The notes: generated by a model from the letters alone, not told the origin. Shown: positions 7,322 through 61,768, numbered from the stretch's first letter. The stretch is 64,000 nucleotides of DNA from Candidatus Magasanikbacteria bacterium UBA922 (GCA_002293825.1 DBDW01000011.1:9436-73435); one strand, 5' to 3'. A program made the numbers and translations.

Positions 7322-7329
7322 AGAAAACA

Positions 7330-8822: not shown

Positions 8823-8833
8823 CCTTCGGGTGA

Positions 8834-8870: not shown

Positions 8871-8977
8871 AACTTGGTAGCAAAAAGTATAGTAAAAAAG
8901 ATAAATCTTGTCAACATACACCTCATAAAAAGCAAAACGGGTACGGTGCAGATGCAACACATACCCGAACGAAGTCA

Positions 8978-9247
8978 TCAAATACCCTCTATATCGTCCC
9001 CCATTTCTCTGGGAGGCAGATAGGGTCCCCGATCGAAGGCAGTCCTCAGCTCACGACGCCCGACATACAGGCCGATCCCACTCAGAAGAAGAATCGCGAC
9101 ACACACCACCTTCGCATACGCACTGTCGACAACGATAATGCCGATCAGAGCAAAGATGATGAAGAGAACAAAAACCCAAGACAACTTGTAATATTTCACT
9201 GACGAAACCCTCCAGTCCTCGATAGTGAGGACAGACGAATATAGCAC
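8978..9247 (-). CDS. small 2-TM membrane protein (hypothetical), locally elevated GC (~50%)
   Basis: 89 aa with two hydrophobic helices. GC content is noticeably higher than in flanking DNA. Confidence 0.35.
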   Translation of the reverse strand: MLYSSVLTIEDWRVSSVKYYKLSWVFVLFIIFALIGIIVVDSAYAKVVCVAILLLSGIGLYVGRRELRTAFDRGPYLPPREMGDDIEGI

Positions 9248-34153: not shown

Positions 34154-34165
34154 AGTAAAATAATA

Positions 34166-36406
34166 TCAATAAGAAGAGGGGCTTCGATCTCTAGTACGAA
34201 GCATGTTCAAACATTCAGCAATATTAGAAGACGACTGTTCAGACGCACCCGGATCATACACACATGCCGTATCCATCTCAGGATCATCAGAGCTCACCTC
34301 AGCACACCCCACACCCTCGACATAATTACCCTCAGCATCAAAAACAGCAGTACAAGTAGAAGGGGTCTCGGGCGTAGTAAGAATATTTGCAGAAGGCCCT
34401 CGTCCAGGATAGAGACAATTTTGATTAACACTCTTTACAGTACTTGGAATAGAAGGTAAATAGTACAGATCAAGATTGTTCGGACCAAAATCACGATGGC
34501 TAATACGTGTCAATGTAGTATCGCCCCCAAACTCAGAATTAATCCAATATGCAATTGGAGGTAATTTTTTTTCATCCGCACACACGTTTGTGCCATCTCC
34601 ATCACTATCGATCGCAGCATCAGCACACACACCCGCAGGATATTCTTCAAGTGCAATTCCTGATGACGAACCATACCCTGACACACTATGGGCAATCATG
34701 CGTTTACTAAATTTGATATACATAGGAGCATCAGAAGAAATATCTTCAGCAGCTGCACCAGGAGTAATTTCTTGGACATAAGGCACACTTCGATCAATCG
34801 TATTTTCGACCAAAAAACCCCATGAATAATTATCAGGTGCTTTTTCAGTATTTCTAATAATCACAGAAGTTTGTGGATCGGGACGAACCAATCGATTAGT
34901 CGCAGCATTATTAGAAACATTATCAAGACCGTTAAAAGCAAGATCATAGATACCAGAAAATGGAACTGCTTCAAACGGAGCATCACTATTATTCGTAGAA
35001 ACCCCTGTTCTCAACAATACTTCATACGGATTCGTACATGCAGGACCCTGACACGAAACCGGCAGACAAAACATTTGCTCGCCACAACTATTCACTCCAC
35101 AAGCTTCTCCAGACACAAACTCAAGTGTTCTGTAACCATTTGATAATCTCCATGATCCTGGAGGAGAAACTCTATTTTCTGCAAAAACCTGATTTACTGG
35201 AGTAAAGGTGGAAAGTGTAGTTGCAGTTATCACAGACTCAGCAACCGTAGGGTCTATAGGCTCACTAAAAGTAATTTGAAGAATAGTATTTCGAGAAGTA
35301 GTCGCGCTTGCTCGAGGATAGACATCGACAACAGTAGGAGGATCAACATCGATAAAATTACCGGTGGTAAAATTCCATGTATACGGAACTCCATTACTAA
35401 AAATACTCTGATTCTGATCTGAGCGCACGATTGAAGTATTAAGACGCACTCGATACTGCACATCTTCAGTAGAAGATCCCAAATATTGATGAGGCTTAAA
35501 CACAAATGAAAACACGTTCCGCTCACTCGTGTATGTAGCAAGCGCAGCACTCGATACCCCAAGTGTATCAACAGTACTTGAGGTAAAATTTGATTCTGTA
35601 TCAATAGTAACCGCACTAGTTTTCAATTGATCACATTCAGCAGTTTTCGTATCTAGAATCCCATCACGATTGAGGTCTGCACAATCACCGAGATATGGAC
35701 GTGCTATCTCTTCAACAGGGGTCGCACTAGTCACTGGTACATCAGTAAGATCAACACATGTGGTAGTAGGTCCCATAAAATTAGCATCCCAGCATGTTCG
35801 ATTGGAATTTTCAATAATACTCAATGGATTGATTGGTAGACCAAACGTAACCACAATACTCGTATTACGAGCAACATTGAGCTGATTGCGAAGCGGATAA
35901 TGATCTTTTACCGATCGACCAAGTGCACCACTAAATGCATATGTTTGTACAGGAGGTGGAGATGAAGCAGATGGCGGAGTATATGTTTCTTGACCAGTAA
36001 GTGATCGCAAAATAAAACTAGTAATAACAAAAGCAGACATGATAATCGCAAGACCAATCACCCCATTGATCAACATTTTTTTTGCACTACTAATCTGCTC
36101 TTCATTTCCACGAGAAGTCATCCATAAATATCCCGCATATAACACAATAGACACTGCAACCAACCCTAAAAATCCTAAAAAGAAATTTATAATTCTCACC
36201 ACTAGAACACGCAAGTCCGCATTTGGATTAGCAGGAATATTGATATTCTCACCAACCCCAACAACCCCAAAATCATCCTGCTGTGCATGTGCCAACAGTG
36301 CGCTCCCAAAAAATAAAAAGCAGGCTAAAAACACAAAAGCGACCATACGACGAAATCGCATAGTAGCTTGCGTGTGTGTAGCTTGTGATCGAGTCTTCGG
36401 GAGCAT
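34166..36406 (-). CDS. large (746 aa) surface protein with the same pilin-like N-terminal module
   Basis: The N-terminal 140 aa are about 65% identical to the N-terminus of 25973..34153 (DDFGV...DLRVLVVRIINFFLGFLGLVAVSIVLYAGYLWMTSRGNEEQISSAKKMLINGVIGLAIIMSAFVITSF). Confidence 0.65.
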   Translation of the reverse strand: MLPKTRSQATHTQATMRFRRMVAFVFLACFLFFGSALLAHAQQDDFGVVGVGENINIPANPNADLRVLVVRIINFFLGFLGLVAVSIVLYAGYLWMTSRGNEEQISSAKKMLINGVIGLAIIMSAFVITSFILRSLTGQETYTPPSASSPPPVQTYAFSGALGRSVKDHYPLRNQLNVARNTSIVVTFGLPINPLSIIENSNRTCWDANFMGPTTTCVDLTDVPVTSATPVEEIARPYLGDCADLNRDGILDTKTAECDQLKTSAVTIDTESNFTSSTVDTLGVSSAALATYTSERNVFSFVFKPHQYLGSSTEDVQYRVRLNTSIVRSDQNQSIFSNGVPYTWNFTTGNFIDVDPPTVVDVYPRASATTSRNTILQITFSEPIDPTVAESVITATTLSTFTPVNQVFAENRVSPPGSWRLSNGYRTLEFVSGEACGVNSCGEQMFCLPVSCQGPACTNPYEVLLRTGVSTNNSDAPFEAVPFSGIYDLAFNGLDNVSNNAATNRLVRPDPQTSVIIRNTEKAPDNYSWGFLVENTIDRSVPYVQEITPGAAAEDISSDAPMYIKFSKRMIAHSVSGYGSSSGIALEEYPAGVCADAAIDSDGDGTNVCADEKKLPPIAYWINSEFGGDTTLTRISHRDFGPNNLDLYYLPSIPSTVKSVNQNCLYPGRGPSANILTTPETPSTCTAVFDAEGNYVEGVGCAEVSSDDPEMDTACVYDPGASEQSSSNIAECLNMLRTRDRSPSSY

Positions 36407-46156: not shown

Positions 46157-48166
46157 TTATGGAACAAGCGGAGAAGTTCCACCTGTAGAAGAAGTCGACG
46201 CACTCTCAATAGGCTGTACAGGAACAATACTCTCAGTAGATGTAGTACTTGAAGATACACCCTCTTCTACCTTTTTTGCAACACCCACGAGACACGTTTC
46301 AGGTAGCGGACGATAATAACTATCATATACCACCTCTTTCTTTTCACCTGTCGGAAGTTCTCGAACGTAGGTAAATGAAGCTACTGCCCCAGGATATGCA
46401 TGCTGACATTCTTTTTTACCAGGAGGAAGTTCTGTAGTTTCAATAATTTTAGTAGGCCCTGCAGGCATACGTCTCGAGACAGTCGGTGGAATAAAATATC
46501 CTTTTCTTCCGTCACTCGTTCCCCATAATGTGAAAAACAAATCACCAGTCTGATCATTGAGTTCTGACGTAATTAAAATATGATGACCAGTATCATTCCG
46601 AAAACGAAAATCTGTACCAGGATCATAAATAGTAGCATCAGTTCCTGGAAGTCCATTAGTAAGATCATTGTAATACGAGATCATCAATGAATGATTCCTT
46701 CGCTCAGTAATCTCAAGCCCTGCATTCATCGCAGCACGAAACATCGTTGTACCGATCTGACACAGTCCTCCACCAATTTCTGGAACCAAGCGATCACCCT
46801 TGATCGTAAGTTCAGGTAGATATCCTCCTTCAAGGGTAAATGGTTTCAATGCGTTGAGTAATGAAAAGTTTTCACCAGGTTTAATAATAAGACCATTCAA
46901 TTTATTAAAAGCTGCATGCCGAATATTTTTATATCGATTTCCAGGACTACCCTTGAAGACCGATTGACCCACACCAAGCACTTCAGTGATTCCAAGATCA
47001 TTCACGTCTGCAGTTTTAATATCAGGCTCAACTTCTTTAACACGCAAGGTAAGACGCTGTGTACTGGTAGGTGCACGCTCTTCATCGAATCGACTAGCAA
47101 ATACTTCACGCAACGCCTCATATGTCGCTTCGACATCTACGGTGAGACCAGGATGAGATCCATGAAATTCCGTCACTCGCCCATCATCACCTACAATAAA
47201 TCGTGCATCCTGCGGAGCAATGTCTATATCAGGAGCTACAGTCTCTCGGAGAAATGCATAGGTAGAAGAAGGAGAAAGCCCAAAAACCAAATCCCCCTCC
47301 TCATCATTCACAACTTCAAGCATACGAGCAAGCATATTCGCATTCAATTTCCATGTATACATGCGCTTGGTAGAAGAATTAAAATACTCTACCGTCAATG
47401 CACCGCGATCGAAAGCTTGGGGTAAAGTTTCAATAATACGCTCAACATCAGATTCGGTAATAAGAGGATCAGTCTCAATCGAAACAATACGAATGTGGGG
47501 CTGCTCTAGACGTGCCCACTGCTCACTAATCTGATCCACAATATGGTTGTAATCAAATGCAGTTCCTCGAGAAGATGAGGTAATCTCATATTCAAGCGGT
47601 GACACCGAAGACACCGACACATTGGCATTGACCATGGGTGTGATGTACGGAGAAACATTTCGATCAATTTCTGCAAATAACTTATCTTTGTGTATTGTGT
47701 GTATCCCAAGATCAATCGAGGGACGTGTACTTAATGTAGTAAATACCCCAACAAAATTTCTAAAAAAATTATTCGTTTGATACTGTGAAATAATTTCACG
47801 AGCAAGTAATGGTGCATCAATCTCAATAAGCTCAGACACCATATCCTCACCAATTGATTGTGGATATAATACAAATTCTTTCACAGACGTTGTCGTATCG
47901 AAAGTAACAGGTATTCCTTGTGCAAGTAATTTTGCTTCCATCTGTTCGATAAATGCAGTAAGTTCCACATCAGTCATTCCTCCAATCGAATATTGGCCAA
48001 TCCGAACCCCTGGAAATACGCGCCCAGAAAACGACTGTGCATACGCAATTCCAATTCCAAAGATGATTACAAGTACAGTAACAACGATAGCGCCTATCGT
48101 TACCATTTTTTTGACGTATTTTTTCTCACCCGGAATCAGATGTGCTGGCGTAATAGTATCAGACAT
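46157..48166 (-). CDS. VanW-family protein with N-terminal TM anchor
   Basis: GGGLCQIGTTMFRAAMNAGLEITERRNHS matches the VanW signature. Confidence 0.7.
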   Translation of the reverse strand: MSDTITPAHLIPGEKKYVKKMVTIGAIVVTVLVIIFGIGIAYAQSFSGRVFPGVRIGQYSIGGMTDVELTAFIEQMEAKLLAQGIPVTFDTTTSVKEFVLYPQSIGEDMVSELIEIDAPLLAREIISQYQTNNFFRNFVGVFTTLSTRPSIDLGIHTIHKDKLFAEIDRNVSPYITPMVNANVSVSSVSPLEYEITSSSRGTAFDYNHIVDQISEQWARLEQPHIRIVSIETDPLITESDVERIIETLPQAFDRGALTVEYFNSSTKRMYTWKLNANMLARMLEVVNDEEGDLVFGLSPSSTYAFLRETVAPDIDIAPQDARFIVGDDGRVTEFHGSHPGLTVDVEATYEALREVFASRFDEERAPTSTQRLTLRVKEVEPDIKTADVNDLGITEVLGVGQSVFKGSPGNRYKNIRHAAFNKLNGLIIKPGENFSLLNALKPFTLEGGYLPELTIKGDRLVPEIGGGLCQIGTTMFRAAMNAGLEITERRNHSLMISYYNDLTNGLPGTDATIYDPGTDFRFRNDTGHHILITSELNDQTGDLFFTLWGTSDGRKGYFIPPTVSRRMPAGPTKIIETTELPPGKKECQHAYPGAVASFTYVRELPTGEKKEVVYDSYYRPLPETCLVGVAKKVEEGVSSSTTSTESIVPVQPIESASTSSTGGTSPLVP

Positions 48167-48177
48167 ATTATAAAAAA

Positions 48178-48654
48178 CTACTCTTCTACAATTTCAATCG
48201 GAATTTTTCGATCCTGAGTGCGTTTCGGCACAATAATTTCCAAAATTCCATTTTTATACTGTGCACGTGCCGCGTCCCCATTGACCTCAACAGGTAATAC
48301 AATCGTGCGTGAAAAATGCCCCCAAAAACATTCACGGTGATAAAACTCGATCGACGATTCCGTCTCGACAGGATTTACACGCTCACCACGAAGTGTCAAA
48401 AGATCATTATGTATATATACCTCAATACGATCAGGAAGCGCACCTGCGACCGTAGACACAATATAAACATTTTTTTCATCATGCGCAACATCCACCGAAA
48501 GTTTACCTTCTTCGAGACGTTCATGCCATTCAGCGGTCGCTGATGCCACAACCGAAGAAGTGGATGCTTCCACAGGGTCAGTGGAGACATGCTCCACAAT
48601 CATAGCATATGAAGGATGTGAGGGTTTGTGCTGCATATAGAGGGAAGTATACAA
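48178..48654 (-). CDS. Hsp20/alpha-crystallin small heat-shock protein
   Basis: Alpha-crystallin domain (LTLRGERV...YKNGILEIIVPK). Confidence 0.85.
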   Translation of the reverse strand: MYTSLYMQHKPSHPSYAMIVEHVSTDPVEASTSSVVASATAEWHERLEEGKLSVDVAHDEKNVYIVSTVAGALPDRIEVYIHNDLLTLRGERVNPVETESSIEFYHRECFWGHFSRTIVLPVEVNGDAARAQYKNGILEIIVPKRTQDRKIPIEIVEE

Positions 48655-48746: not shown

Positions 48747-48834
48747 GGAGAGGTGGCTGAGCGGTTGAAGGCGGCAGTCTTGAAAACTGTTGTAGGCTTT
48801 TAGTCTACCGTGGGTTCGAATCCCACCCTCTCCG
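48747..48834 (+). tRNA. tRNA-Ser (anticodon UGA)
   Basis: Class II tRNA with long variable arm. Acceptor GGAGAGG/CCTCTCC with G73. Anticodon loop CTTGAAA. Confidence 0.85.
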
Positions 48835-48883
48835 CACAAAAGACAATATTGTGGTACGTTTCAGTATACGCTATTGGCAAAAT

Positions 48884-48972
48884 GGAGAGGTGTCAGAGTG
48901 GTCTATCGTGCAGCTTTGCTAAAGCTGTGTCCGAATAATATCGGACCGAGGGTTCGAATCCCTCCCTCTCCG
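48884..48972 (+). tRNA. tRNA-Ser (anticodon GCU)
   Basis: Same acceptor stem. Anticodon loop TTGCTAA. Long variable arm. Confidence 0.85.
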
Positions 48973-49001
48973 CATGGAGAAAAACGCTACTACACGACAA
49001 T

Positions 49002-49088
49002 GGAGAGGTGGTTGAGTGGTTGAAAACAGCAGTTTACTAAACTGCCGTCCCTTTCGGGGGACCGTGGGTTCGAATCCCACCCTCTCCG
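49002..49088 (+). tRNA. tRNA-Ser-like, unusual anticodon loop TTACTAA (anticodon ACU)
   Basis: Same acceptor stem, G73 and long variable arm. The anticodon stem GCAGT/ACTGC gives a 7-nt loop TTACTAA. It differs from the GCU gene's loop by G34 to A34. Confidence 0.65.
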
Positions 49089-49173
49089 CACAGATAGACA
49101 GTATCCACCATTTGGCATACTGTCTTTTTTTTAGTATAGTAAAAATCCACTTGGATCACATAATACCTCTTAT

Positions 49174-49770: not shown

Positions 49771-50197
49771 ACCCTCACTCATCGTAGACGGACACACTCT
49801 CACCGTAGGAATTGTCACCGCACGATTCAATGAAGAAATCACACACGCCCTACACACACATGCCATAGACAGATTACACGAATGCAATGTAGAAGAAAAA
49901 AATATCCGAAGCGTGACAGTGGCAGGAGCAGCAGAAATCCCAATCGCACTCCAAAAACTTGCCCGTACAAAAAAATATGACTGTCTTATCGCACTCGGAT
50001 GCGTGATTCGTGGAGAAACTCCCCATTTTGAATACGTATGCACAATGGTACAGCAAGGAATACTCCGCGTCTCTCTCGACGAAGGAATACCAATAGGTTT
50101 TGGGATTATTACTGTACACACACTCGAACAAGCACTCGCACGAAAAAATCTTGGTGCAGACGCTGCGAGCGCAGCACTTGAATGCGCATTGATCTAA
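49754..50197 (+). CDS. ribH: 6,7-dimethyl-8-ribityllumazine synthase
   Basis: VGIVTARFNEEIT...GAAEIP...ALGCVIRGETPHFEYV. Overlaps the ribE end by 17 nt. Confidence 0.85.
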   Translation: MQLEHKPSLIVDGHTLTVGIVTARFNEEITHALHTHAIDRLHECNVEEKNIRSVTVAGAAEIPIALQKLARTKKYDCLIALGCVIRGETPHFEYVCTMVQQGILRVSLDEGIPIGFGIITVHTLEQALARKNLGADAASAALECALI

Positions 50198-50256
50198 CCT
50201 AGACTATATACAAAAAATACACGATACTCTCGTGTATTTTTTCACACACAATTCAC

Positions 50257-50958
50257 CTACCCTCGAGCAATACTAAACCCAGACACTGCTTCCACCCCCA
50301 CCAAATGCAATGCTCGTGCACATTCGAATACCGTACTTCCTGTGGTAAACACATCATCGACAACTAGCAGTCTCTTCCCACGTATCAAAGGAATATAGGT
50401 GGGTATGACCGAAAACACCCCACTCACATTCATAATTCTACCCTGCCGATCAAGTGTAGCCTGCTGTACCGTGTGTACTACACGCTGAAGCGGATCGAGA
50501 AACGGAACACCGGTAACACGACTCACCGATAAGGCAAAAGATTTACTCTGATTAAATCCACGCTCAACAAATCGTTTTCGATGCAATGGCACCGGCACGA
50601 CAATATCCACGCCAGACAATTGGTGTGTGAAAAAAAATTTCTCAATCAAAAAATTAAATGAAGTTTCAAGAGACTCCAAATATTCATATTTATACAAATG
50701 AATCATCTGGTGAATAGGTGAAGTTTCTGTAAACGGTACGATAGCCACATGACGAACAAGCGGAGAATTTTTTCTACAAGAAAGACAAGACACTCCTTCA
50801 GCACTCGGTGTATGGCACACTGGACAGCAAAAAATACCTGTGCAATCAATCGCAGCAAGGCACGCACTACACACATTCTCACCCTCCCGACCACACGCAA
50901 CACAAAAACGAGGAAAAATATACTCAAAAAAACGACGTACCAGTGCCTGCCCCTCCAT
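50257..50958 (-). CDS. comFC: ComF-family protein (ComFC, phosphoribosyltransferase-type competence protein)
   Basis: N-terminal 4-Cys zinc finger (CVACG...CPVC). C-terminal PRTase motif LLVVDDVFTTGST. Confidence 0.75.
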   Translation of the reverse strand: MEGQALVRRFFEYIFPRFCVACGREGENVCSACLAAIDCTGIFCCPVCHTPSAEGVSCLSCRKNSPLVRHVAIVPFTETSPIHQMIHLYKYEYLESLETSFNFLIEKFFFTHQLSGVDIVVPVPLHRKRFVERGFNQSKSFALSVSRVTGVPFLDPLQRVVHTVQQATLDRQGRIMNVSGVFSVIPTYIPLIRGKRLLVVDDVFTTGSTVFECARALHLVGVEAVSGFSIARG

Positions 50959-50985
50959 AAGCTAGACGTAAAAAACGTTCACGTA

Positions 50986-51582
50986 TTATTGCAACCAGAC
51001 ACCCGCTACGAGCCACTGAGTGCCTGACTTGAGCATATCGACCTGTGCAGTAATCATCACCGTCTCAGAACTAGAATCAATTCCTCGAGTAGTCTGTCGG
51101 GCTCCGACTTCCACCTGCGCTTTTTCTGGTGTGTACGACACAATACGTGTACTCAAAACTTCGGTAGTAACCCCCTGATACGTGAGATGCTGTTCTTGTG
51201 AATGAGATCTAATCCATTCGTGCATTCCCGATGCAGCGAGTGCCAACGCATCTTCAATATGCTGATTATCATTTTGATTCGAGTAACTCCAAAAACGTTC
51301 TACAAATATACGTGCAGACTGTTTTGCATAAATTTCATCTGGACTTTCCTGCACACTCGTCTCTGACTGAGGAAGCGTATCAGGACGCCTAAATTCTACA
51401 TTCTCAATCGGGGGTAGCTCGACCTCTACACGCTCGTCAGCCAGAGGTGGAATTTCGACGGTCTCAGGATCACGAAGGATCAGAAAAAACAATATTCCAA
51501 GAATACTGAGTATGCCCCCACCCCCAATCAGTAAAATACGTGTTCGTAATGTAAGCATATAGTACAAATTAGTAGATAACAA
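50986..51582 (-). CDS. hypothetical bitopic membrane protein, possibly VirB8-like (N-terminal TM + periplasmic domain)
   Basis: Single N-terminal TM (ILLIGGGGILSILGILFFLIL) and a ~150-aa soluble domain. The VirB8 assignment rests on position and topology only. Confidence 0.3.
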   Translation of the reverse strand: MLSTNLYYMLTLRTRILLIGGGGILSILGILFFLILRDPETVEIPPLADERVEVELPPIENVEFRRPDTLPQSETSVQESPDEIYAKQSARIFVERFWSYSNQNDNQHIEDALALAASGMHEWIRSHSQEQHLTYQGVTTEVLSTRIVSYTPEKAQVEVGARQTTRGIDSSSETVMITAQVDMLKSGTQWLVAGVWLQ

Positions 51583-51587
51583 TCACA

Positions 51588-53453
51588 TTATGATCGGCGT
51601 TCTCCCAGTTGACTTGATTTAAATTCTTTTTTCGCCCGCTCAATTTCTAATAATTGTTGTGGATTCGAGGTAACCAACTGATCTTCGGTATACGAAGCTA
51701 CAATCTGTATTGCAGCATGACGATTTCCTGCAAAGAAAATCCCCTGCCCCACTCCACTATCAAGTAACAAGTATTTCTCACCCTCAGTCAACATAAATGT
51801 TTTCTGAATCATATCCACTGCCGAAGGAGATTGTCTCAACAATAATTGCATAGCAGAGTTATTTACAATTGCCTGACCATAGGGTGATCGAAGAAAATCA
51901 TTCACATCCTGTGTAATCGTCGTCACTCCGAGATAATATTTACGACATCGTTTTACCAATGCGTACATAAATTTAGCACTATCTTCATGAAGCATGAGCC
52001 ACCACGCTTCATCAATAATCAACAATCGACGTTTCTTCTCTGAACGCACAATATTCCAAATATAATTAATCAATGTATAAATGGCCATCGGGCGTAATTC
52101 ATCTTCAAGATCACGCACACTAAATATAACCAATTGATTATTCATATTCACATTAGTCGGCGAATTGAACAATCCTGAAAACGTACCTTCAGTGTATTTT
52201 CGCAATTTGAGTGCCAATGTCTCAGCACCATCCATTCCTTCGAGCACATCAAGCAAATCCTGCATAATCGGAACTTCGACGGTCGACAAATCAGACAATG
52301 TAGTAATATCTTTCTTTGCATACGCTTCCAATACTGCTCGATCGAGAATTGAGTCTTCCTGTGCAGTCATCGTACCAAACATGATACGGAGCAATCCTTT
52401 GAGCGTAATAACTGCACTGCGAATAATATCTTCAGTCGAAATTTGCTGACCCACCGGTCGAGGCAAATCAAATGGATTAACTTTACTTTCTGACGCAAGT
52501 GAAATATTGATATACGTACCACCCACTGCTTCAGAAAGATGTACATATTCCATTTCAGGATCAATCACAATGATATCAGTACCCATCATAAGACTACGAA
52601 GAATTTCCAACTTCACTGCATATGATTTTCCTGCACCAGATGTAGCAAATACCACCATATTCGCATTCTGGAGAGAAAACCGATCAAACAAAATCAAACT
52701 ATTATTATGCTTATTGATTCCATACAAAATACCATTATCACTCGTAAGTTCCGTTGAAATAAATGGAAACGATGCAGCAATCGGACTCGAATTCATGTTG
52801 AATGAAATAACCAGCTCATCCATACCAAGCGGAACAGTAGAATTGAATCCTTGCTCTGATTGATACAGCACGTGTTTACTGTGAATCAATTTGGAACCAA
52901 AAATATTATGAATATCCTCAGTCACTCGTTCGAGCTCTTCTTTTGAAGAAGCATACAGAGTAACATAAAAAGCAAACTGAAAAAAATGCTCAATTCCCTG
53001 AGTCAAATCATCTCGAAGCTGTTCAACATCTCTCAAGGCAGTTTCCCGAATCGGATCACGTGGCGCACCCTTCTCAGTATCTGCATTGATCTGTGCTTGT
53101 AGGGCACCTACCTTTTTTTTCAATTGTTTCAAAATAACGGTAGCATTGACTGGATAAAAAAACATCGAGACATCCATGGTAAGATTCAAATTGAGAATCG
53201 GACTCGACCACCCAATAGAAATATATCGAGGATATGATACGACAAAAATCGTACGCAAAAAGATGCTTCCTAATTGTAAAAAATTAGACTCTACATTGAA
53301 GGCAGAAGGTGCAATGAGATCCCGAAGTGCAACCGTACCTTCACGATAGACACGTTCTTCTTCAAGCGTAACCAAAGTCTCATCAGTATGGGGTACTGAA
53401 CGCCCTTTATTTTTGCGACTTCGTGAATCAAGTGATACGGGTTGGAATGGCAT
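51588..53453 (-). CDS. VirB4/TraC/PrgJ-family conjugal-transfer-type ATPase (ATPase portion)
   Basis: Walker A VFATSGAGKSY, Walker B LLIIDEAWW, and VirB4 C-terminal motifs. Confidence 0.85.
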   Translation of the reverse strand: MPFQPVSLDSRSRKNKGRSVPHTDETLVTLEEERVYREGTVALRDLIAPSAFNVESNFLQLGSIFLRTIFVVSYPRYISIGWSSPILNLNLTMDVSMFFYPVNATVILKQLKKKVGALQAQINADTEKGAPRDPIRETALRDVEQLRDDLTQGIEHFFQFAFYVTLYASSKEELERVTEDIHNIFGSKLIHSKHVLYQSEQGFNSTVPLGMDELVISFNMNSSPIAASFPFISTELTSDNGILYGINKHNNSLILFDRFSLQNANMVVFATSGAGKSYAVKLEILRSLMMGTDIIVIDPEMEYVHLSEAVGGTYINISLASESKVNPFDLPRPVGQQISTEDIIRSAVITLKGLLRIMFGTMTAQEDSILDRAVLEAYAKKDITTLSDLSTVEVPIMQDLLDVLEGMDGAETLALKLRKYTEGTFSGLFNSPTNVNMNNQLVIFSVRDLEDELRPMAIYTLINYIWNIVRSEKKRRLLIIDEAWWLMLHEDSAKFMYALVKRCRKYYLGVTTITQDVNDFLRSPYGQAIVNNSAMQLLLRQSPSAVDMIQKTFMLTEGEKYLLLDSGVGQGIFFAGNRHAAIQIVASYTEDQLVTSNPQQLLEIERAKKEFKSSQLGERRS

Positions 53454-53522
53454 ACATAAATCGTAAGTCTATAAAATCTTCAGAGAAAAAGTGGAAAACT
53501 GAAAATACATCACCACCTCTCT

Positions 53523-54218
53523 TTACATAGGCAAATCATCTTCCACCTGCTGACTACGGATGTCACCCAATTGCTCAGCATAGGAAATATCTGGATTATA
53601 GGTACTATAATACAATTCAATCAATGCTTGCGTATCGAGTGCCACCACCTCGAGCCCCATACTAGTAAGACCACTCTCAATCTGCCGCACTCGTAAATCA
53701 AGATTTTCTTTTCGTCGCCTAAACTGTTCTTCTTTCAATTTGAGTGTAAACGTAGGTGTAAGCACTTCTTTAAAACGAGACCAAAAACCTTTTTTCTGAT
53801 CGTCCAATGGAGAATACGGTACGACCACAAAATATCGTTTCGTCATGATTTTACCAATATCGACCAACTCTTCGATAAACAATCGATAATCAGCTATCTG
53901 CACACGAAGCAATTCATTGGGCTGTTCACGTTCCAATTTTGCCAAATTATCCAAATACGGCTTAATCTGCAAACGTCGAGACTGTACCACCACCTGAATC
54001 GGAAAATCTAATGAATTCAAAAAACCAACGTATGCCGAAATAATCGCATTCTGCTCGTCTTCTGATTTCAAAGCAAAATTAATACTCGACGTGAGAAGCA
54101 CCCGTCGCATCGTACCATCCTTCAGAACCACGACCCCATCTTTTATTTCAGCAATCGGTAAATGAGCCTGACTACTCGGCTGTGAAATTCTTTTTTGTAC
54201 TGCTTTCTTATCTTTCAT
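53523..54218 (-). CDS. VirB4-family N-terminal domain encoded as a separate ORF
   Basis: LPIAEIKDGVVVLKDGTMRRVLLTSSINFALKSEDEQNAIISAYVGFLNSLDFPIQVVV matches the conserved N-terminal region of Gram-positive VirB4 homologs. It lies 70 bp upstream of the ATPase ORF. Confidence 0.5.
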   Translation of the reverse strand: MKDKKAVQKRISQPSSQAHLPIAEIKDGVVVLKDGTMRRVLLTSSINFALKSEDEQNAIISAYVGFLNSLDFPIQVVVQSRRLQIKPYLDNLAKLEREQPNELLRVQIADYRLFIEELVDIGKIMTKRYFVVVPYSPLDDQKKGFWSRFKEVLTPTFTLKLKEEQFRRRKENLDLRVRQIESGLTSMGLEVVALDTQALIELYYSTYNPDISYAEQLGDIRSQQVEDDLPM

Positions 54219-54300
54219 AACATGTTAGTAGTATACCACGATGACCCCATTCTTGACACATCATTCCTGGACACACATGAATGATGAAAAAATATATACA

Positions 54301-54735
54301 TTATGAATCCGTATCCTCTTCTCGATAATACCCTCCCGTGTTCACAAGTAAAGACAAATCTTGAATACGCTCACGTTTTACCGGTTTTACCTCAGGCCGT
54401 GCTTCAGGCTCTTCAGGAACATACTTTCTCAATACATGTAATTCTTTGCTACTCAAAGTTTTATGCCAGACTCGTCGACTTGGACGTCTCAGTGTCTGAA
54501 TCATATTCAACAAAAAATAATGAAACGCCTGACCATTAACTTTGACAAATGCAATTACCAATCCTCCACCTCCAAAAAAAATAAGAGAAAAAAGAAATAA
54601 CGAAAAATCACCAAATCGAAATGACAAAAAAACCACGAGCCCCACTACCAACAAAATTAAAAACTGCCGAGTCGTAATCGGACCCAAAATTCGATCTTCT
54701 ACATCAATAAATTGTGGAACGACAAATTGTTGCAT
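54301..54735 (-). CDS. PrgI/VirB3-like small membrane protein
   Basis: FIDVEDRILGPITTRQFLILLVVGLVVF pattern plus a second TM. It lies upstream of VirB4, as for prgI-prgJ. Confidence 0.5.
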   Translation of the reverse strand: MQQFVVPQFIDVEDRILGPITTRQFLILLVVGLVVFLSFRFGDFSLFLFSLIFFGGGGLVIAFVKVNGQAFHYFLLNMIQTLRRPSRRVWHKTLSSKELHVLRKYVPEEPEARPEVKPVKRERIQDLSLLVNTGGYYREEDTDS

Positions 54736-54835
54736 GAAACAATACTTAACACAAGATATTACAAAATTTACACAGAATATTCGATACGTACCGACAAAAC
54801 TATACAGGTAATGAATACCACCAATCTATTCATGA

Positions 54836-56059
54836 TCAATCCATCATTTCGAATTTTCGATTCACCTCGATAAGTGCTTGGTATTCAGTATATGACAACT
54901 GACCTTCTCGCAATACAGTAGCTACCGTCTGCCGTGTCTCGAGTGCCCTGACCGTGCATTCAATGTACATACGATATAATGGACTCTGTCTCCAACTATC
55001 TCGCACCTGCAAGTATAACAAGTATGATTCATCTTTCCAACCACTAAATTTTGACAACACCATGTCTCCTGCAGTTTTCGGATCACGTGACAGACGTCTA
55101 AAATCATCAATCGAAAATGAAAGTATTTCTTCTCGTGGCCCCATAACCGCAGGAACAGTATCACCTGAACGCACCTCCTGAATAACACGAGCAGGTGCAT
55201 GTACTGGAGGAATACTCGGTTTCGGCGGAAGCGGAGGAGCCGATGATGCACGTGGTGGTACAGGTTTCGGTGCAGACGCACTCACCAACGTAGCATTGCC
55301 GGATATTTCAAAAAATAATTTCTGTGTATCATCAAGAGACAATCCCAATCCACCATCAGCAGGAGATTTCATCGCATACTCACGAAACTGATGCTCATCT
55401 CGAATACCTTTTTTCCACGACAAAACCAATGCGTTCAGACGAGCTTCCAAATCTTTGGGAAAAGTTACTGAACTAGAAAAATTCACCTGTGTAGTAGGTA
55501 GGTGATACACACTCTCTCGCTCACGCAAAGAATTGATTTCAGACACATCTTCATCGAGCAATGAGCGAAGATCTTCTTTTTTTGTACTCACCACAGGCAC
55601 TGCGACCGATGATTGCGGATGCTGAAATATCCGAGCTACCGGAGTAGTAGTCGCGAGATGTTGTTCGGGCACTACCTGAGGAACGGCAGACGAAGGAATA
55701 GACACATTCGTCTCAGAGGTAGAAGCGGATACAGTAGTAGGGATAATCGGGATCACACGTCGAGGGGTAGGAGACGAAGGTTTTGAAGTGGCGACAGTAG
55801 GGATAATCGGAATTGGACGACGTACCTCACCCTTGTGAGCCACCAGTGGTTTTACATGCGGCACATCTTTATGAGGAATAGAAGAAACTGTACTCGTCTC
55901 ACGAGCAGAATTACTACGATCTTTTGTGTCAGATACCCCGCTTTCCGTACGTTTCATCTGTTTACGCTTCTTGAATTCCTCGAGCGTGATACGCTCGGTC
56001 GTACCATCTGATTTCTTGATAAGGATGGTGGGTTGTTGCTTGATAATTGAATCTGTCAT
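54836..56059 (-). CDS. hypothetical Pro/Ser-rich protein in T4SS-like cluster
   Basis: 407 aa. Low-complexity P/S/T-rich central region. No recognised domain. Confidence 0.4.
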   Translation of the reverse strand: MTDSIIKQQPTILIKKSDGTTERITLEEFKKRKQMKRTESGVSDTKDRSNSARETSTVSSIPHKDVPHVKPLVAHKGEVRRPIPIIPTVATSKPSSPTPRRVIPIIPTTVSASTSETNVSIPSSAVPQVVPEQHLATTTPVARIFQHPQSSVAVPVVSTKKEDLRSLLDEDVSEINSLRERESVYHLPTTQVNFSSSVTFPKDLEARLNALVLSWKKGIRDEHQFREYAMKSPADGGLGLSLDDTQKLFFEISGNATLVSASAPKPVPPRASSAPPLPPKPSIPPVHAPARVIQEVRSGDTVPAVMGPREEILSFSIDDFRRLSRDPKTAGDMVLSKFSGWKDESYLLYLQVRDSWRQSPLYRMYIECTVRALETRQTVATVLREGQLSYTEYQALIEVNRKFEMMD

Positions 56060-56088
56060 ATAAATTCGATCTTAGAATAATTGGAGTC

Positions 56089-57114
56089 CTACTGGTTTTC
56101 CAATTCATCTTGTCTCAAAAATTCTTCATTCCATGTAAATACATCCATCTCATCATCGTAATAATACAAATCTCGAATTTTTTCATCCTGATATTCTTCT
56201 GATAATTCCATTAGTCGAGTAATAATATACTCATCTTTCTCATCTTCAGAAAGAGATGAAAGTTGTCGCAATAACCCAAGATACACCTCATAATATAACG
56301 ATCTTTTCTTTTTTTTACCCCCCAGAAAAATAGTATTATCTTCGACAAAATCAGAATTTTTCTGTCTCTCTTCATTAGAGCGCAAAAAATTAAAACCAAG
56401 ACTGCCCAAAATAACACTCTCAACACTAGTAGAAAGATAAGTAGCTGTATTTAAATATTGAATACGAAGATCTGCTACAGACCTTGTGTCAGTAATAATA
56501 CCAATAAACTGAAAAAAAACTCTTATTCTCTCCACTTTCTTATCTGAAGAATAAAGCTCAAATTCAGGTTCTTGAAATAAAAATTTTTCAATATCAGCAT
56601 ATAGGGCGGATCGTTCAAAAATATCTAACGAAGTTGCATCTTGTATATCCTTAACCAAAGAAAGCATATTCTTTCCACCATGATAATCATACGGATAATT
56701 AAAATCTTTAATAGAATTAACTATCGCAGCATGAAAACTATTTTGAACACTTTCATCCGGAATAGACCCGATAAGAAAATTTCTATACAAATTTGAAACA
56801 TCAAAACCAAGCCTAAATGCCATCGCAAACTGCGTAGAAACAATTTCTGAAATTTGATCTGGGGTTCGAGAAAAAAAATGTTGCCAAGAAACTATCGTAT
56901 ACCACTTCCAATAACTATCGTAAGTATCACGTATCAAATCGAGACTAAAATTTTGTTTTTTAAAGAAATCATGCCATGCATTAAAAAAATTCTCAGAAAC
57001 TTTAGGGTCATAGAGAATACCATAAATCACAGACTCAATTTCTTGTTTCTTCTCAGTATCAAGAGGTGGTAATGTACGTAAAAATTGTAAATCAATCATA
57101 GAGTTTATAATCAA
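56089..57114 (-). CDS. hypothetical cytoplasmic protein in T4SS-like cluster
   Basis: 341 aa with no TM. Overlaps the VirB6-like gene stop by 4 nt, consistent with translational coupling. Confidence 0.4.
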   Translation of the reverse strand: MIINSMIDLQFLRTLPPLDTEKKQEIESVIYGILYDPKVSENFFNAWHDFFKKQNFSLDLIRDTYDSYWKWYTIVSWQHFFSRTPDQISEIVSTQFAMAFRLGFDVSNLYRNFLIGSIPDESVQNSFHAAIVNSIKDFNYPYDYHGGKNMLSLVKDIQDATSLDIFERSALYADIEKFLFQEPEFELYSSDKKVERIRVFFQFIGIITDTRSVADLRIQYLNTATYLSTSVESVILGSLGFNFLRSNEERQKNSDFVEDNTIFLGGKKKKRSLYYEVYLGLLRQLSSLSEDEKDEYIITRLMELSEEYQDEKIRDLYYYDDEMDVFTWNEEFLRQDELENQ

Positions 57115-60100
57115 AGCATTCCACTTTTTCTTGCAATGTCGACCAATTCTCTATGCGACAAAGCACCGATTTTTTCAGGAGGAAAGCCAAACTGGGTATA
57201 CAATTCTTTCCACGCACTTAAAACATTAGCTTTCACCGCAGGAGATTCATCTTGATTTTGAGGATCAGATATTTTTTTCCACTCAGAAAAAACAGGTTTC
57301 CATTCTTCTTTAAAGTCAGGTGGTACCTTGTGAAAGGAATTCGAGGTTTCATCATACAAACCACTTTCTCCATATTCTCGAGCACCTAAAAGATATCTCA
57401 ATTTAGGCGTACCCATCTTCTTTATCCCATCAGCACTTCGAATACGAGCAATGGTTGCGATCTGTCCTTTTGCACGCTGCTTAATCGTTACACCGGAAGC
57501 AGTAATATTCGTATATTCTCTTCCATCTGCAGCTGATAAAATATCAAAATTAGGTTCCATATAATCTTTAACATCTGACTTTATCATTTGAACCCCATCT
57601 TCCTTTTTGCCAGTTCCCAAAACACCTTTAGTTCCAACCCCATTTTTCATAGCAACCGCAGCACCTACAACTTTTGCACCAAATTCATTGCGCCCTTCAG
57701 CAAACTGATGAAACAAATGAATATTACCTTTTTGCTCAGCAGAATCTTGTACCCCTTTTTGTATAGTACGAAAAAGAATACCAGCTTTTTCCTTGAGATT
57801 TTTTCGATATTCTTCCTGAACCCGAGACGCATCCTCAGGGGTTTTTAGTTCTGTTGCACTTCGTGCAGTAAGTGCTCCCAATAAGAGTTTACCTGCACCA
57901 TCTTCATCATCAATAATCTCATCATAAGAAGTGTCACCAATAGATTGGTTAAAAGATCTCAAAGCACCTACCATCGAATGGTGGTAACCTCTCTGCTGTA
58001 TACTTGCAACAACTCGTGCCTGACTCTGGCTTCGATTCTTTAGAAAATCTTTCTCCTGATCACTGAGAGTTTCCCCGTTTTTTTGCTTATCAGTCAATTC
58101 TCTAATATCTTTCAAATTTCGTTGAAATAATTCAAATATTTCTTCATAAGAAATTCCCTCAAGTTCTTTTAACTCTTCAGATATTTTTGCTCGTTCCATA
58201 TTTCTAATCTCATCCATTTCTTTCCCTTGTAAACCTCTCAAAATATCTGAAATCTTAAGACCAATATTTTTTTCTTCTGACTCAGCTTTCTTAGTTTTTT
58301 GTTCAGCACTTTTAATACTAGTCTGGGCTTGAATTTTAAGCCATTGTGGATTGTTAGCAATTACATCAGCCATCACATTAACACGTTGTTTCTCATCAAT
58401 ATTCTTAATCGCTTCTTCACGATTATCATTGATGAATTTTTCAAAATTTTTCTGTGCATATTTGGTTTTAAATTCTTTCTTCTCATAATCATAACCGTAA
58501 TCCATCTCTTTAATCTCTTTCTTTTTTGCCTGTATTTGATCTTGATAATTTCCTTTACGTATCTCATTTTCAGTTTTACCTAATTGTTGTGAAAGCTTTT
58601 GTATAGCCACCAATTCAAGAACGGTATTCTGTACCAATTCCTCATTTGCCTTTTCCAAAGCTTCCTCAAATTCACGAGTTTCTTTCATTACATATCCAAG
58701 ATTCATGATACCAAAAAATTTATCTTCATCGCCTTTAAGTTTATTTTCAATTTCTTTAAAAGACATCTGATCTAAATGAGTGGCCACAAACGGAGTAGAT
58801 TCTGCTGCCTGCTCTTGAAACTCTCTTAATTTATCTACGTTAAATTTTTTACTCAATTCTTCAAGTCTTAACTCTGGATCTGAAATATTCTTAATTTTTT
58901 CAGCTTCTTTAGGATCAATATTTTTTATTAAAATATTCTCAAGATTTTTATCAAATTTTTGCCTCTGCTCACCCGAAATCTGAACTCGTGCATCAATTCT
59001 TTGCCTATTAAATGCAGTTTCTTTCTGTTTTTCTATCATTTCAGTTTTTTCAGTTGCCATCGCACGGGTTTTTGCATCTGGCGCAAACAAACCTGCAAAC
59101 CCACCACCCTTAGCTGTTACAGCACGAGCCTTCATGTCACGTAAATAATCCACTTTTTTCAACGCAGCATCCCTTCTCAATTTTTCTCTTCCAAAATAAT
59201 CCTTAACAGCCAATAGACCAGTTTTAGATGCTGCAAGTTTTCCATATGCACCACCCACTTCTACCCCCTTACCCACCAACCATCTACCCGCAGCATACCC
59301 AGTAGCAATCGTTGCCACTTTCTTCGTAAAATCTACTGCTCCACCAATAAGCCCAGAACCTGTGGCACCAGTATCCTGCGTCTTCTTGATACCTACCCAG
59401 AGAAACGCAATTCCGAGAAGAAAACTCGCCATATTCTCCCACGTAGTAATCTCGAGAATAGAGACAGACTGCTGAAATTGTGCATTCTCTCCAGTAGCAT
59501 CGATCTTGATCACATTCGGACCACTCTGAATCTCAGAAATAATCTGCCCAGTACCAAAGGTGGCAAACGCAAGCCACAAGAAAAATACCATTATCGGAGC
59601 CACAATCACATGCTTGGTAAATTCACTCCACCACTCACGAGCATAATCCTCACCTTTCGGAAGCGCATAAAGCATGAATGCGAGAGGAGAAAGAATAATC
59701 AGTGCCCACAAGACCACAATACGAGCAATCATGGTAACGAGATACGCTCCAATCGTAACCGCTGCAAGAAGTGCAAACAGAAACGACATCACACTTGCGG
59801 CAAAAAGTGCAAGCGAAGCATTTTCAGGAGTCGTACCAAGGGCATCTCCCGAAACCAAGCCTAAAATTTTATCAAATTGAAACAAATTAATAAGATTCCC
59901 ACCTGCAGTAGCAGAGACAGGATTCAAAAAAGTGATGGTAAAAATATGTGCCACATCGATCACGAGCTGTGCGATCAAATTACTAAAATTGATTAATATT
60001 GCCATCAACACAATCTTCACCAATCCTCGCTTCCACTCATACCCCTCGAGACCGAGAATCGTGGCAAAGGCAATCACCAACAGCCCCACAATAAAGAACA

Positions 60101-60494
60101 TATTTGCCACATCACGAACCATGACCCACCCCAATCGCACCACACTCACGTCAATATAATTATTGTACGATGCCAAGGTGATAAAAAATCGCAAGAAAAA
60201 AATCGCAAGAAAAATACACAATTTTGCCAATTCCAAAAGAATACTCGCCAAAATACGCCCGACCCATCCAAACACAGTCGTAAAATCAATCGCCGCAAAC
60301 ACCAAAGTTACCGACACAATACTAATCAAAAAAATACCTACCAGAAAAACCGGCCACCACGTCCGTTTTTTGAGTACATTCGGAAATAATTTGTCGTACG
60401 CTTGACGCACACCGCTCACAAACGATGCAAAAAAGCGTTGCATGTGATGATAATTAGAATACTTGAGACCTAGTATACCACAAAACAAAAACAC
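57111..60494 (-). CDS. VirB6/TrbL-like polytopic membrane protein with ~700-aa coiled-coil-rich C-terminal extension
   Basis: The N-terminal ~430 aa has at least 8 TM helices in TrbL/VirB6-like arrangement. The C-terminal part is K/E-rich with predicted coiled coils. Confidence 0.55.
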   Translation of the reverse strand: MFLFCGILGLKYSNYHHMQRFFASFVSGVRQAYDKLFPNVLKKRTWWPVFLVGIFLISIVSVTLVFAAIDFTTVFGWVGRILASILLELAKLCIFLAIFFLRFFITLASYNNYIDVSVVRLGWVMVRDVANMFFIVGLLVIAFATILGLEGYEWKRGLVKIVLMAILINFSNLIAQLVIDVAHIFTITFLNPVSATAGGNLINLFQFDKILGLVSGDALGTTPENASLALFAASVMSFLFALLAAVTIGAYLVTMIARIVVLWALIILSPLAFMLYALPKGEDYAREWWSEFTKHVIVAPIMVFFLWLAFATFGTGQIISEIQSGPNVIKIDATGENAQFQQSVSILEITTWENMASFLLGIAFLWVGIKKTQDTGATGSGLIGGAVDFTKKVATIATGYAAGRWLVGKGVEVGGAYGKLAASKTGLLAVKDYFGREKLRRDAALKKVDYLRDMKARAVTAKGGGFAGLFAPDAKTRAMATEKTEMIEKQKETAFNRQRIDARVQISGEQRQKFDKNLENILIKNIDPKEAEKIKNISDPELRLEELSKKFNVDKLREFQEQAAESTPFVATHLDQMSFKEIENKLKGDEDKFFGIMNLGYVMKETREFEEALEKANEELVQNTVLELVAIQKLSQQLGKTENEIRKGNYQDQIQAKKKEIKEMDYGYDYEKKEFKTKYAQKNFEKFINDNREEAIKNIDEKQRVNVMADVIANNPQWLKIQAQTSIKSAEQKTKKAESEEKNIGLKISDILRGLQGKEMDEIRNMERAKISEELKELEGISYEEIFELFQRNLKDIRELTDKQKNGETLSDQEKDFLKNRSQSQARVVASIQQRGYHHSMVGALRSFNQSIGDTSYDEIIDDEDGAGKLLLGALTARSATELKTPEDASRVQEEYRKNLKEKAGILFRTIQKGVQDSAEQKGNIHLFHQFAEGRNEFGAKVVGAAVAMKNGVGTKGVLGTGKKEDGVQMIKSDVKDYMEPNFDILSAADGREYTNITASGVTIKQRAKGQIATIARIRSADGIKKMGTPKLRYLLGAREYGESGLYDETSNSFHKVPPDFKEEWKPVFSEWKKISDPQNQDESPAVKANVLSAWKELYTQFGFPPEKIGALSHRELVDIARKSGML

Positions 60495-60512
60495 ACGCTA
60501 TCAAAGGTGTGA

Positions 60513-60536
60513 GTCATTCCCGCGAAAGCGGGAATC
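60513..60536. repeat. 24-bp terminal inverted repeat, left copy (GTCATTCCCGCGAAAGCGGGAATC; itself a hairpin)
   Basis: Exact reverse-complement copy at 60752-60775. Confidence 0.7.
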
Positions 60537-60541
60537 CTCAT

Positions 60542-60737
60542 TTAAGAAGCACGGTCCAGCCAATTTGGATTTTCCTTTTCAATAAGCGAAATTTTCCACG
60601 TTCGATTCCATTTCTTCAGCTGTTTCTCTCGAAAAATACTTATGTTCAGTAACTCGCCGCTGTAAATCATTAGTCATACCAATATACAAAACACCATTTT
60701 TTCTACTTGCCAATATATAAACATAAAAATATCTCAT
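60542..60737 (-). pseudogene. degenerate GIY-YIG nuclease gene (frameshifted, internally deleted)
   Basis: Manual translation gives MRYFYVYILASRKNGVLYIGMTNDLQRRVTEHKYFSRETAEEMESNVENFAY*. After a -1 shift it reads LIEKENPNWLDRAS*. This is a GIY-YIG core plus the family C-terminal tail, but it lacks the central ~20 aa. Confidence 0.6.
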
Positions 60738-60751
60738 ACCCCTCCAAATTA

Positions 60752-60775
60752 GATTCCCGCTTTCGCGGGAATGAC
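60752..60775. repeat. 24-bp terminal inverted repeat, right copy (GATTCCCGCTTTCGCGGGAATGAC)
   Basis: Reverse complement of 60513-60536. Confidence 0.7.
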
Positions 60776-60778
60776 ATA

Positions 60779-61768
60779 TTAAGATAGTTTTTTGATTTTC
60801 ACGACAAAAAATCCTTCAATCTGTGGTGTAGGAAGAATTCGCAAAGCGTGCGTCCGCACATCATCACGAAATGTAAGCGCTTTAAAAGCATGTACGATGG
60901 GTGCGCGTGGAATGTCTAACACAATCGGCTCGACCGACGCATCGGGAGTACGATCGAGAAATTTTTGTACCTGTACTTCATTTTCTTCAGGAGCAAATGT
61001 ACAGGTAGAATACACGAGCACTCCACCTGGACGGAGCATGTGCCATGCAGCTCGAAGCAAAATTCGCTGTGTATAGGCCATTTCCTTGATTTTTCGCTCG
61101 CTCCAATACCCGAAACTCTTGGGATCAGTGGTGTCAAACCGAGCTTCAGCACTACACGGAGCATCGAGCAAGATTTTATCAAAATAATCAGTATATTCAC
61201 GAGACAATTGGGCTCCATGCTCCATCCGAAGTGTGAACTGCCATTCGGGAGACTCATCAGTTACTCCCAAAAGCTCCATATTATGCTTGAGTTTGAAAAA
61301 ACGTATCTTGTTCTTATCATTGGCCACAAGTTCACCGTGTCTACCCATCAACGCAGTAATCTGACTCGTCTTACTACCTGGCGCCGCAGTAAGATCCAAT
61401 ACCCGATCTCCTGATTTCGGCTCAAGCACAAGCGGAGGTACCATACTCGCAAGACTCTGGATATATATCTTCCCCTCTGCATAGATGTGACACTCAGTAA
61501 GTTCACGCTTGCTTTTGTTCAACAAAACATACGCATCGGGATACCATGCGATTTTTTGCACTTTGAATCCATGTGAGGATAAAAATGGAATAACCTCAGT
61601 AGACGAAGCCTTTAATCGATTTATCCGAAAAGTGGTAGGGCGACCCACAAATGTCTTCTCAATCTCACGAAACCGAGATAGACCAAACAATGCAGTCATT
61701 CGTTCGACAAACTTCTCAGGCAATTCTTTCCTCACTCCATGACTATGTTTCTTCTTTTTCTTCGCCAT
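60779..61768 (-). CDS. rRNA m5C methyltransferase, RsmB/RsmF (NOL1/NOP2/Sun) family
   Basis: SAM-binding motif VLDLTAAPGSKTSQI. Catalytic region CTFAPEENE. Basic N-terminus. Confidence 0.8.
   Translation of the reverse strand: MAKKKKKHSHGVRKELPEKFVERMTALFGLSRFREIEKTFVGRPTTFRINRLKASSTEVIPFLSSHGFKVQKIAWYPDAYVLLNKSKRELTECHIYAEGKIYIQSLASMVPPLVLEPKSGDRVLDLTAAPGSKTSQITALMGRHGELVANDKNKIRFFKLKHNMELLGVTDESPEWQFTLRMEHGAQLSREYTDYFDKILLDAPCSAEARFDTTDPKSFGYWSERKIKEMAYTQRILLRAAWHMLRPGGVLVYSTCTFAPEENEVQVQKFLDRTPDASVEPIVLDIPRAPIVHAFKALTFRDDVRTHALRILPTPQIEGFFVVKIKKLS

Follow-up and report, generated by a model that had tools for sequence, protein, structure and literature searches.

A comF-terminated type IV secretion gene block of Candidatus Magasanikbacteria: an ABY1 form of the Patescibacteria system with a possible role in host-cell contact

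The type IV secretion systems (T4SSs) of Patescibacteria have recently been surveyed (Quinonero-Coronel et al. 2025, PMC12102498). Their VirB4 ATPases form a monophyletic clade related to the monoderm MPF-FATA class (MPF, mating-pair formation); the most frequent companion of virB4 is TrsD, and PrgI/VirB3, VirB6 and VirB2-like pilins are also encoded near it. VirB8 homologues were almost confined to ABY1, relaxases were mostly absent, and genes for the type IV coupling protein (T4CP, VirD4) were seldom adjacent to virB4. The same survey found comF, recG and radA to be common in ABY1 T4SS loci, “suggesting functional coordination”; its supplementary files hold no counts for these three genes. 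Our literature search found no other paper tying ABY1, T4SS and comF together. In this report, we analyze a locus of this kind, an eight-gene block ending in comF that occupies positions 50257-60494 of a 64,000-nucleotide stretch (hereafter, the window) from Candidatus Magasanikbacteria bacterium UBA922 (GCA_002293825.1 DBDW01000011.1:9436-73435).

Patescibacteria, which depend on host cells, account for a large share of bacterial diversity. The only relatives to have been tested genetically are the Saccharibacteria: in S. epibionticum, the T4SS (SEML1_0006-0019) is essential for epibiotic growth, while comEC is dispensable, ComEC, ComF and DprA make no significant contribution to fitness, and transformation requires ComEC (Wang et al. 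2023, PMC10633639). A review concludes that the Patescibacteria T4SS is the only one shown to be essential for the survival of its bearer, and that this essentiality cannot stem from a functional interaction with ComEC (PMC12857230). The comF gene locked into the ABY1 operon is one of the few genomic clues to nucleic acid as the cargo, or as a process co-ordinated with the machine.

We consider secure the identification of the block as the ABY1 form of the known, MPF-FATA-derived T4SS of the Patescibacteria clade. Both the system and its comF link were published in 2025, and the window adds no new kind of system; because the link in ABY1 was already in print (PMC12102498), an earlier, sequence-only reading of this DNA overrated its novelty. 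That reading did describe a co-directional block with VirB3-, VirB4-, VirB6- and possible VirB8-like proteins that ends at comF, and the map of open reading frames (ORFs) in the window, together with the family matches, bears this out: the interval is filled by eight co-directional minus-strand ORFs (Table 1). Of the three proteins left there as unknowns, those of 341 and 407 aa indeed match no family; the third proved to be TrsD/TraC-like. The block securely encodes a cytoplasmic-membrane translocon, with an extended VirB6-like channel, PrgI/VirB3, a VirB4 motor in two pieces and a bitopic VirB8-fold protein, to which are added two lineage-specific soluble proteins and the terminal ComF. The genes for the VirB6-like and 341-aa proteins overlap by 4 nt, and the subsequent gaps down to comF measure 29, 100, 82, 69, 5 and 27 nt. 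A 284-nt gap separates the block from rsmB upstream, and ribH lies convergent to comF, 59 nt downstream.

The VirB4 ATPase matches NF045971 (conju_CD1110) at 2.4e-107 (360 bits, cutoff 325) over profile positions 172-730 of 752, and it also matches PF19044 (1.7e-29). The TrsD protein matches NF041427 (TrsD) at 4.1e-6, bears PF26593 (TraC-like) as a precomputed annotation, and aligns to positions 11-77 in the VirB4 profile of CD1110 and to 92-284 in that of Mbov_0397. Since the TrsD protein covers the N-terminal part of such profiles and the 621-aa ATPase the remainder, VirB4 is encoded here in two genes. Matches to T4SS-DNA_transf and VirD4-like families within the block are weak and fall on the P-loop of VirB4 itself. 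The small membrane protein is assigned to PrgI by PF12666 (7.6e-9; 36.4 bits, cutoff 27).

A transmembrane (TM) scan of the VirB6-like protein places at least six TM segments within residues 49-314; a hydrophilic, K/E-rich tail of about 800 aa comes after them. The protein itself has no direct Pfam match; 11 of 33 homologues of its N-terminal 440 aa match PF04610 (TrbL/VirB6; best 5.4e-9), and other homologues are annotated with the precomputed PF19590 (TrbL_3). An AlphaFold2 model of the protein (mean pLDDT 76) retrieves R388 TrwI/VirB6 chains as its top five Foldseek matches in the PDB, with probabilities of 0.98-1.0 and E values of 0.02-0.08. The gene directly after virB4 encodes a bitopic protein of the VirB8 fold, a type reported mainly in ABY1. 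Sequence searches of the PDB with the VirB8-like profile, the TrsD protein, the VirB6-like profile and the 407-aa family profile returned nothing useful.

Of the two soluble proteins, that of 341 aa has no Pfam or NCBIfam match and no TM segment. The 407-aa protein, likewise without a TM segment, has a conserved motif at its N terminus (with an invariant K-x2-D-G across the family), a middle part rich in Pro and, at its C terminus, a conserved domain of about 100 aa. It has no Pfam, NCBIfam or PDB match, and none was obtained with 40 family members (Pfam) or the family profile (PDB). With 1509 representative clusters (50% identity) at E<=1e-3, and 445 at E<=1e-10, it appears to define an undescribed T4SS-associated family.

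To place the block among relatives, GTDB species representatives were scanned, yielding 80 loci whose VirB4 proteins are 69-95% identical. The record titles name Magasanikbacteria in most cases and Uhrbacteria or Falkowbacteria in some, and many of the metagenome-assembled genomes are untitled or evidently mislabelled; from prior knowledge of GTDB taxonomy, we take all 80 to be members of the class ABY1. The loci were compared by tblastn and ORF clustering. A separate TrsD gene stands beside virB4 in 77/77 loci and PrgI is present in 76/76; the 407-aa gene lies upstream of PrgI in 67/71, and the VirB6-like gene upstream in 50/53. The 341-aa slot is held by three unrelated-looking ORF clusters, found in 12, 18 and 24 loci. 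A VirB8-like family directly follows VirB4 in 68 of the 80, a frequency far above the few dozen that the published HMM searches recovered from their whole dataset (PMC12102498), and modelled structure confirms a near-universal VirB8-like subunit. Of the 66 loci with enough sequence, 62 have comF at most 2.5 kb from the VirB4 end and on the same strand, at a median distance of 3 nt from the VirB8-like gene (60 loci); its adjacency, whose absence in relatives would by the sequence-only reading's own account have refuted that reading, is conserved. Four loci lack an adjacent comF (L037, L069, L078 and L081); its position is taken by a pilin-domain protein in L081 and by RelA/SpoT and topoisomerase I in L037.

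The block has sharp borders. Immediately after comF, 58 loci have genes of 43 distinct families, the commonest of which occurs 8 times; immediately before the VirB6-like gene, 51 loci have genes of 38 families. Among the best 120 VirB4 homologues (79-95% identical), nearly all have 618-642 aa and three have 584-600 aa, and the organism names are solely Candidatus Magasanikbacteria, Patescibacteria group and uncultured bacterium. A frameshift or pseudogene as the source of the split VirB4 was ruled out, given that the split recurs in every one of the 77 relatives and that all VirB4 homologues have about 584-642 aa. The median identity of VirB4 is 76%, and VirB4 is more conserved than AsnRS in six of six paired loci; the divergence of comF correlates with that of VirB4 (rho 0.68). 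The block is inherited vertically as part of the core genome, and it evolves like an essential core gene set.

Table 1. Genes of the block and pilin-domain genes in the same window (positions counted from the first nucleotide of the window).
Feature	Position	Strand	Remarks
Extended VirB6/TrbL-like polytopic membrane protein	57111-60494	-	1127 aa from GTG; 1110 aa in other gene calls (start 17 codons later)
341-aa soluble protein, without assigned family	56089-57114	-	fast-evolving operon slot
407-aa protein, large undescribed family	54836-56059	-	upstream of PrgI
PrgI/VirB3-like small membrane protein, 144 aa	54301-54735	-	PF12666
TrsD/TraC-like protein, 231 aa	53523-54218	-	VirB4 N-terminal-like domain as own gene
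VirB4 ATPase, 621 aa, MPF-FATA-like	51588-53453	-	NF045971
Bitopic VirB8-like protein	50986-51582	-	198 aa from TTG; 190 aa from ATG (other gene calls)
ComF-family protein, 233 aa	50257-50958	-	last gene of conserved block
746-aa protein: signal peptide, VirB2-like T4SS-pilin hairpin, Big_5 ectodomain	34166-36406	-	PF18895, NF045849
2726-aa paralogue: signal peptide, VirB2-like pilin hairpin, LVIVD repeats, TIG, Big_5	25973-34153	-	

This conservation bears on whether the block could be a classical integrative conjugative element (ICE) or the remnant of one, a reading encouraged by the nearness of its VirB4 to the conjugative VirB4 of Firmicutes ICEs (the CD1110 family) and by a GIY-YIG nuclease fragment just upstream. 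All window ORFs of at least 120 aa were scanned with Pfam, except those nested in or antisense to longer ones; among them we found no relaxase, coupling protein or integrase, in agreement with the sequence-only reading, no search having been made for the oriT that it had also declared absent. Flanking repeats were likewise looked for and not found, and a tandem-repeat and Rfam scan of the window returned six tRNAs only. The scanned ORFs are those of a core housekeeping region: DnaE, FtsZ, FtsA, NrdR, L10, L7/L12, TsaD, SMC, ClpP and HisRS, along with an AsnRS/AspRS-type synthetase, RsmB, RecO, LepB, YbeY and riboflavin genes. Just past the window, where the sequence-only reading had left room for a relaxase or VirD4, contigs with an identical RecO supply a further 2.6 kb, and these encode RuvX, methionine aminopeptidase (Map) and a CAP-domain protein and neither of the two. 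The GC content of the block equals that of its surroundings, save in the K/E-rich tail of the VirB6-like gene. Because the block is syntenic across 80 species, has variable flanks and carries a VirB4 more conserved than AsnRS, it is not an ICE; that reading, extremely improbable in our estimation, was rejected on the lack of mobility genes in the window and the 2.6 kb past it, the synteny and the conservation of VirB4. We infer that the machine is not conjugative. To this extent the earlier description of a chromosomal, non-conjugative T4SS holds; nothing shows it to be “devoted to DNA uptake”, as was also proposed.

The last protein of the block has an N-terminal, Cys-rich double zinc ribbon (DZR_2, 23.9 bits, cutoff 27) and a C-terminal phosphoribosyltransferase-like domain (PF00156, 28.8 bits, cutoff 26.3), and the phosphoribosyl pyrophosphate-loop motif LLVVDDVFTTGST can be read in its sequence. 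It matches two models at full length, TIGR00201 comF at 6.6e-24 (85 bits, curated cutoff 233) and GntX at 3.4e-27 (95 bits, curated cutoff 304). A phmmer search with this protein against the PDB gave adenine phosphoribosyltransferase-type chains only and no chain named ComF.

We regard as most probable, at roughly 55%, that the T4SS serves contact or exchange with the host cell, as in Saccharibacteria, and that comF is expressed along with it, the handling of single-stranded DNA (ssDNA) thereby accompanying contact. By analogy to the Saccharibacteria system that is essential for epibiotic growth, the T4SS would build a contact structure or a conduit to the host cell. Co-transcription of comF with the T4SS genes would cause ComF-type ssDNA handling, normally downstream of ComEC, to be expressed together with host contact, and such coupling would suit the scavenging or recombining of host-derived DNA. 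It is less likely that the T4SS channel itself carries DNA. The quantified synteny (62/66, with sharp borders) and the structural confirmation of the VirB8-like subunit sharpen a hypothesis that would become testable with an ABY1 co-culture.

Several considerations weigh against this assignment. We infer function throughout, and ABY1 is without a cultivated member. No role can be assigned to two of the eight proteins in the block, those of 341 and 407 aa. A consensus promoter and terminator scan of 49900-61000 counted no more sites than are found in shuffled sequence; it is uninformative, and a single transcript for the block stays putative. Outside the 64 kb and 2.6 kb inspected, the genome could encode a coupling protein or a relaxase that escapes recognition, and many distant VirD4 homologues have been reported in Patescibacteria (PMC12102498). 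Last, a conserved operonic comF could equally mean that its product is physically and directly coupled to the T4SS.

Direct coupling of this kind would be expected if the T4SS were a DNA-import channel like H. pylori ComB or archaeal Ced, with ComF as a cytoplasmic ssDNA acceptor that replaces the coupling protein. The remarkable stability of the comF linkage keeps the idea alive: comF is terminal in the block in 62 of 66 ABY1 species, with its median gap of 3 nt to the VirB8-like gene, and there is no relaxase or T4CP nearby. Further, RecG is encoded downstream of the block in 7 loci, RecO and RuvX are encoded upstream of it here, and functional coordination has also been proposed by others (PMC12102498). 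We nonetheless think DNA import unlikely. Two sampled non-ABY1 Patescibacteria loci (one annotated Azambacteria), reached through homologues of the VirB6-like protein, have genes for VirB6-like, TrsD-like and VirB4 proteins, joined in the Azambacteria locus by PrgI; this same core adjoins rnpA, yidC and dnaA and is without comF. ComF is therefore not a general component. A Rosetta-stone search of the 80 loci for fusions of comF or the VirB8-like gene with other T4SS genes found none, neither VirB8-like-comF nor VirB4-comF, and the match to CedB reaches 43 bits against a cutoff of 700. In Gram-positive competence, ComEC alone suffices for crossing the single membrane of a monoderm, and a monoderm would thus need no second DNA channel. 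Moreover, transformation of S. epibionticum needs ComEC, and there it is the T4SS that is essential and comEC that is dispensable (PMC10633639, PMC12857230). A more specific proposal, that in ABY1 ComF became the dedicated cytoplasmic partner of a relaxase-less T4SS whose VirB6/VirB4 channel takes up host DNA directly, seems to us rather doubtful. If true, it would be a monoderm bacterial counterpart of ComB and Ced, and it would give a function to the enigmatic essential T4SS of Patescibacteria.

The link might instead have no mechanistic meaning: comF could have entered the operon a single time, in the ancestor of ABY1, and have stayed there since tight spacing or shared transcription makes it costly to separate. 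With a median identity of 34%, as against 76% for VirB4, comF evolves much faster, like an ordinary accessory gene. The link is apparently restricted to one class, and it is general knowledge that reduced genomes often pack unrelated genes into operons. A neutral association sits poorly with the survival of the link through the reshuffling of both flanks (43 and 38 neighbour families) and with its loss in just 4 of 66 loci, and we think it unlikely.

The sequence-only reading termed the cluster minimal, and in doing so overlooked two proteins with VirB2-like pilin domains encoded in the same window (25973-36406), about 15-25 kb from virB4. The 746-aa protein matches PF18895 (T4SS_pilin) at 3.2e-6 (27.5 bits, cutoff 26.6) and the pilin-like model NF045849 at 1.8e-6. 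In the 2726-aa protein, the PF18895 match (3.5e-4, 21 bits) is under the same cutoff, and LVIVD is matched at 1.7e-40; the N-termini of the two proteins can be aligned by eye. As in the Patescibacteria clade at large, VirB2-like pilin genes thus lie within about 20 coding sequences of virB4. The 746-aa protein is likely a surface or pilus component of the same T4SS. After this pair come genes for a VWA protein of 1087 aa (22759-26022) and for a protein with TSP3 repeats (21482-22339). The contact end of the T4SS may be formed by pilin-anchored giant adhesins.

Other features of the neighborhood deserve mention. A gene pair for Hsp20 and a VanW/PG_binding_4 protein (46157-48654, minus strand) recurs a few kb downstream of the block in 16-17 of the 80 loci; the block is without a VirB1-type hydrolase, and the nearby cell-wall-binding VanW protein might be relevant in this respect. 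The GIY-YIG nuclease fragment (52 aa; 60579-60737, minus strand; PF01541, 7e-9) lies inside the 284-nt gap that separates rsmB from the VirB6-like gene. A relative with 94% identity (L087) has a 132-aa PDDEXK_3 gene (8775-9173) inserted between its prgI and trsD genes. The operon and its edges seem to be landing places for small nuclease genes, possibly selfish ones.

Elsewhere in the window, local GC rises to 0.49 at 6001-8000, as against about 0.41 in other parts, coinciding with a 257-aa ORF (6494-7267, plus strand); the antisense ORFs that overlap it have no Pfam match, and it may have been recently acquired. Positions 48747-49089 (plus strand) hold a tandem of three tRNA-Ser genes, whose anticodons are UGA, GCU and ACU. 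The last, tRNA-Ser(ACU) at 49002-49089, scores 60.3 bits with Rfam, has the canonical loop TTACTAA and carries A34, which to our knowledge is unusual in bacteria outside tRNA-Arg(ACG). Four relatives (L001, L087, L008 and L010) keep the trio, and two others (L086 and L024) lack it. Codon usage in ten large genes (AGU 167 times, AGC 14 times) fits the presence of tRNA-Ser(ACU). A recoding of AGA through this tRNA was rejected, as homologues have R, K or Q at the positions of the two AGA codons of virB4.

Compared with known systems, the block resembles H. pylori ComB in that both are T4SSs without a relaxase, in genomes where ComF-family proteins are also used; H. pylori ComFC ties membrane DNA transport to the cytoplasmic handling of ssDNA. 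ComB, a VirB-type system of a diderm that includes VirB7, VirB9 and VirB10, brings double-stranded DNA into the periplasm, from which ComEC takes DNA across the inner membrane. Here, by contrast, there is one membrane, the block has no match to the VirB7/9/10 families, and VirB4 is of another lineage, scoring 35 and 11 bits with the MPF-T VirB4 equivalog models (cutoffs 1050 and 957). We know of no linkage of comF to the comB genes in H. pylori. The likeness to ComB on which the sequence-only reading leaned is thus a loose one, the system belonging to an MPF-FATA-derived clade with no match to an outer-membrane core. Archaeal Ced (CedA/CedB) shares a VirB4/HerA-like ATPase, a monoderm envelope and, in its case, DNA import without a relaxase; the similarity to CedB is generic (NF041017, 43.4 bits), and CedA has no match.

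The conjugative MPF-FATA systems (pCF10 prgH-prgI-prgJ-prgK-prgL; pGO1/pSK41 trsC-trsD-trsE; C. difficile CTn2 CD1110) share with the block the order VirB6 ... VirB3-(TrsD)-VirB4-VirB8-like and the lack of an outer-membrane core; the VirB4 of the block is over the CD1110-family cutoff, and its TrsD-like protein has a gene to itself, as in pGO1. The block differs from them in having no relaxase, coupling protein, oriT-associated genes or VirB1-type hydrolase, and in its core-chromosome location, its VirB2-like pilin domains and the ComF in its operon. Closest of all is the Patescibacteria T4SS itself, which is likewise chromosomal and MPF-FATA-derived, combines TrsD, PrgI/VirB3, VirB4 and VirB6 with VirB2-like pilin-domain proteins nearby, has no relaxase or T4CP adjoining virB4, and in ABY1 loci includes a VirB8-like protein and comF. 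To the picture drawn by the survey of that system (PMC12102498), the present locus adds comF as the terminal gene of a sharply bounded eight-gene block, and pilin domains fused to ectodomain proteins of 746 and 2726 aa.

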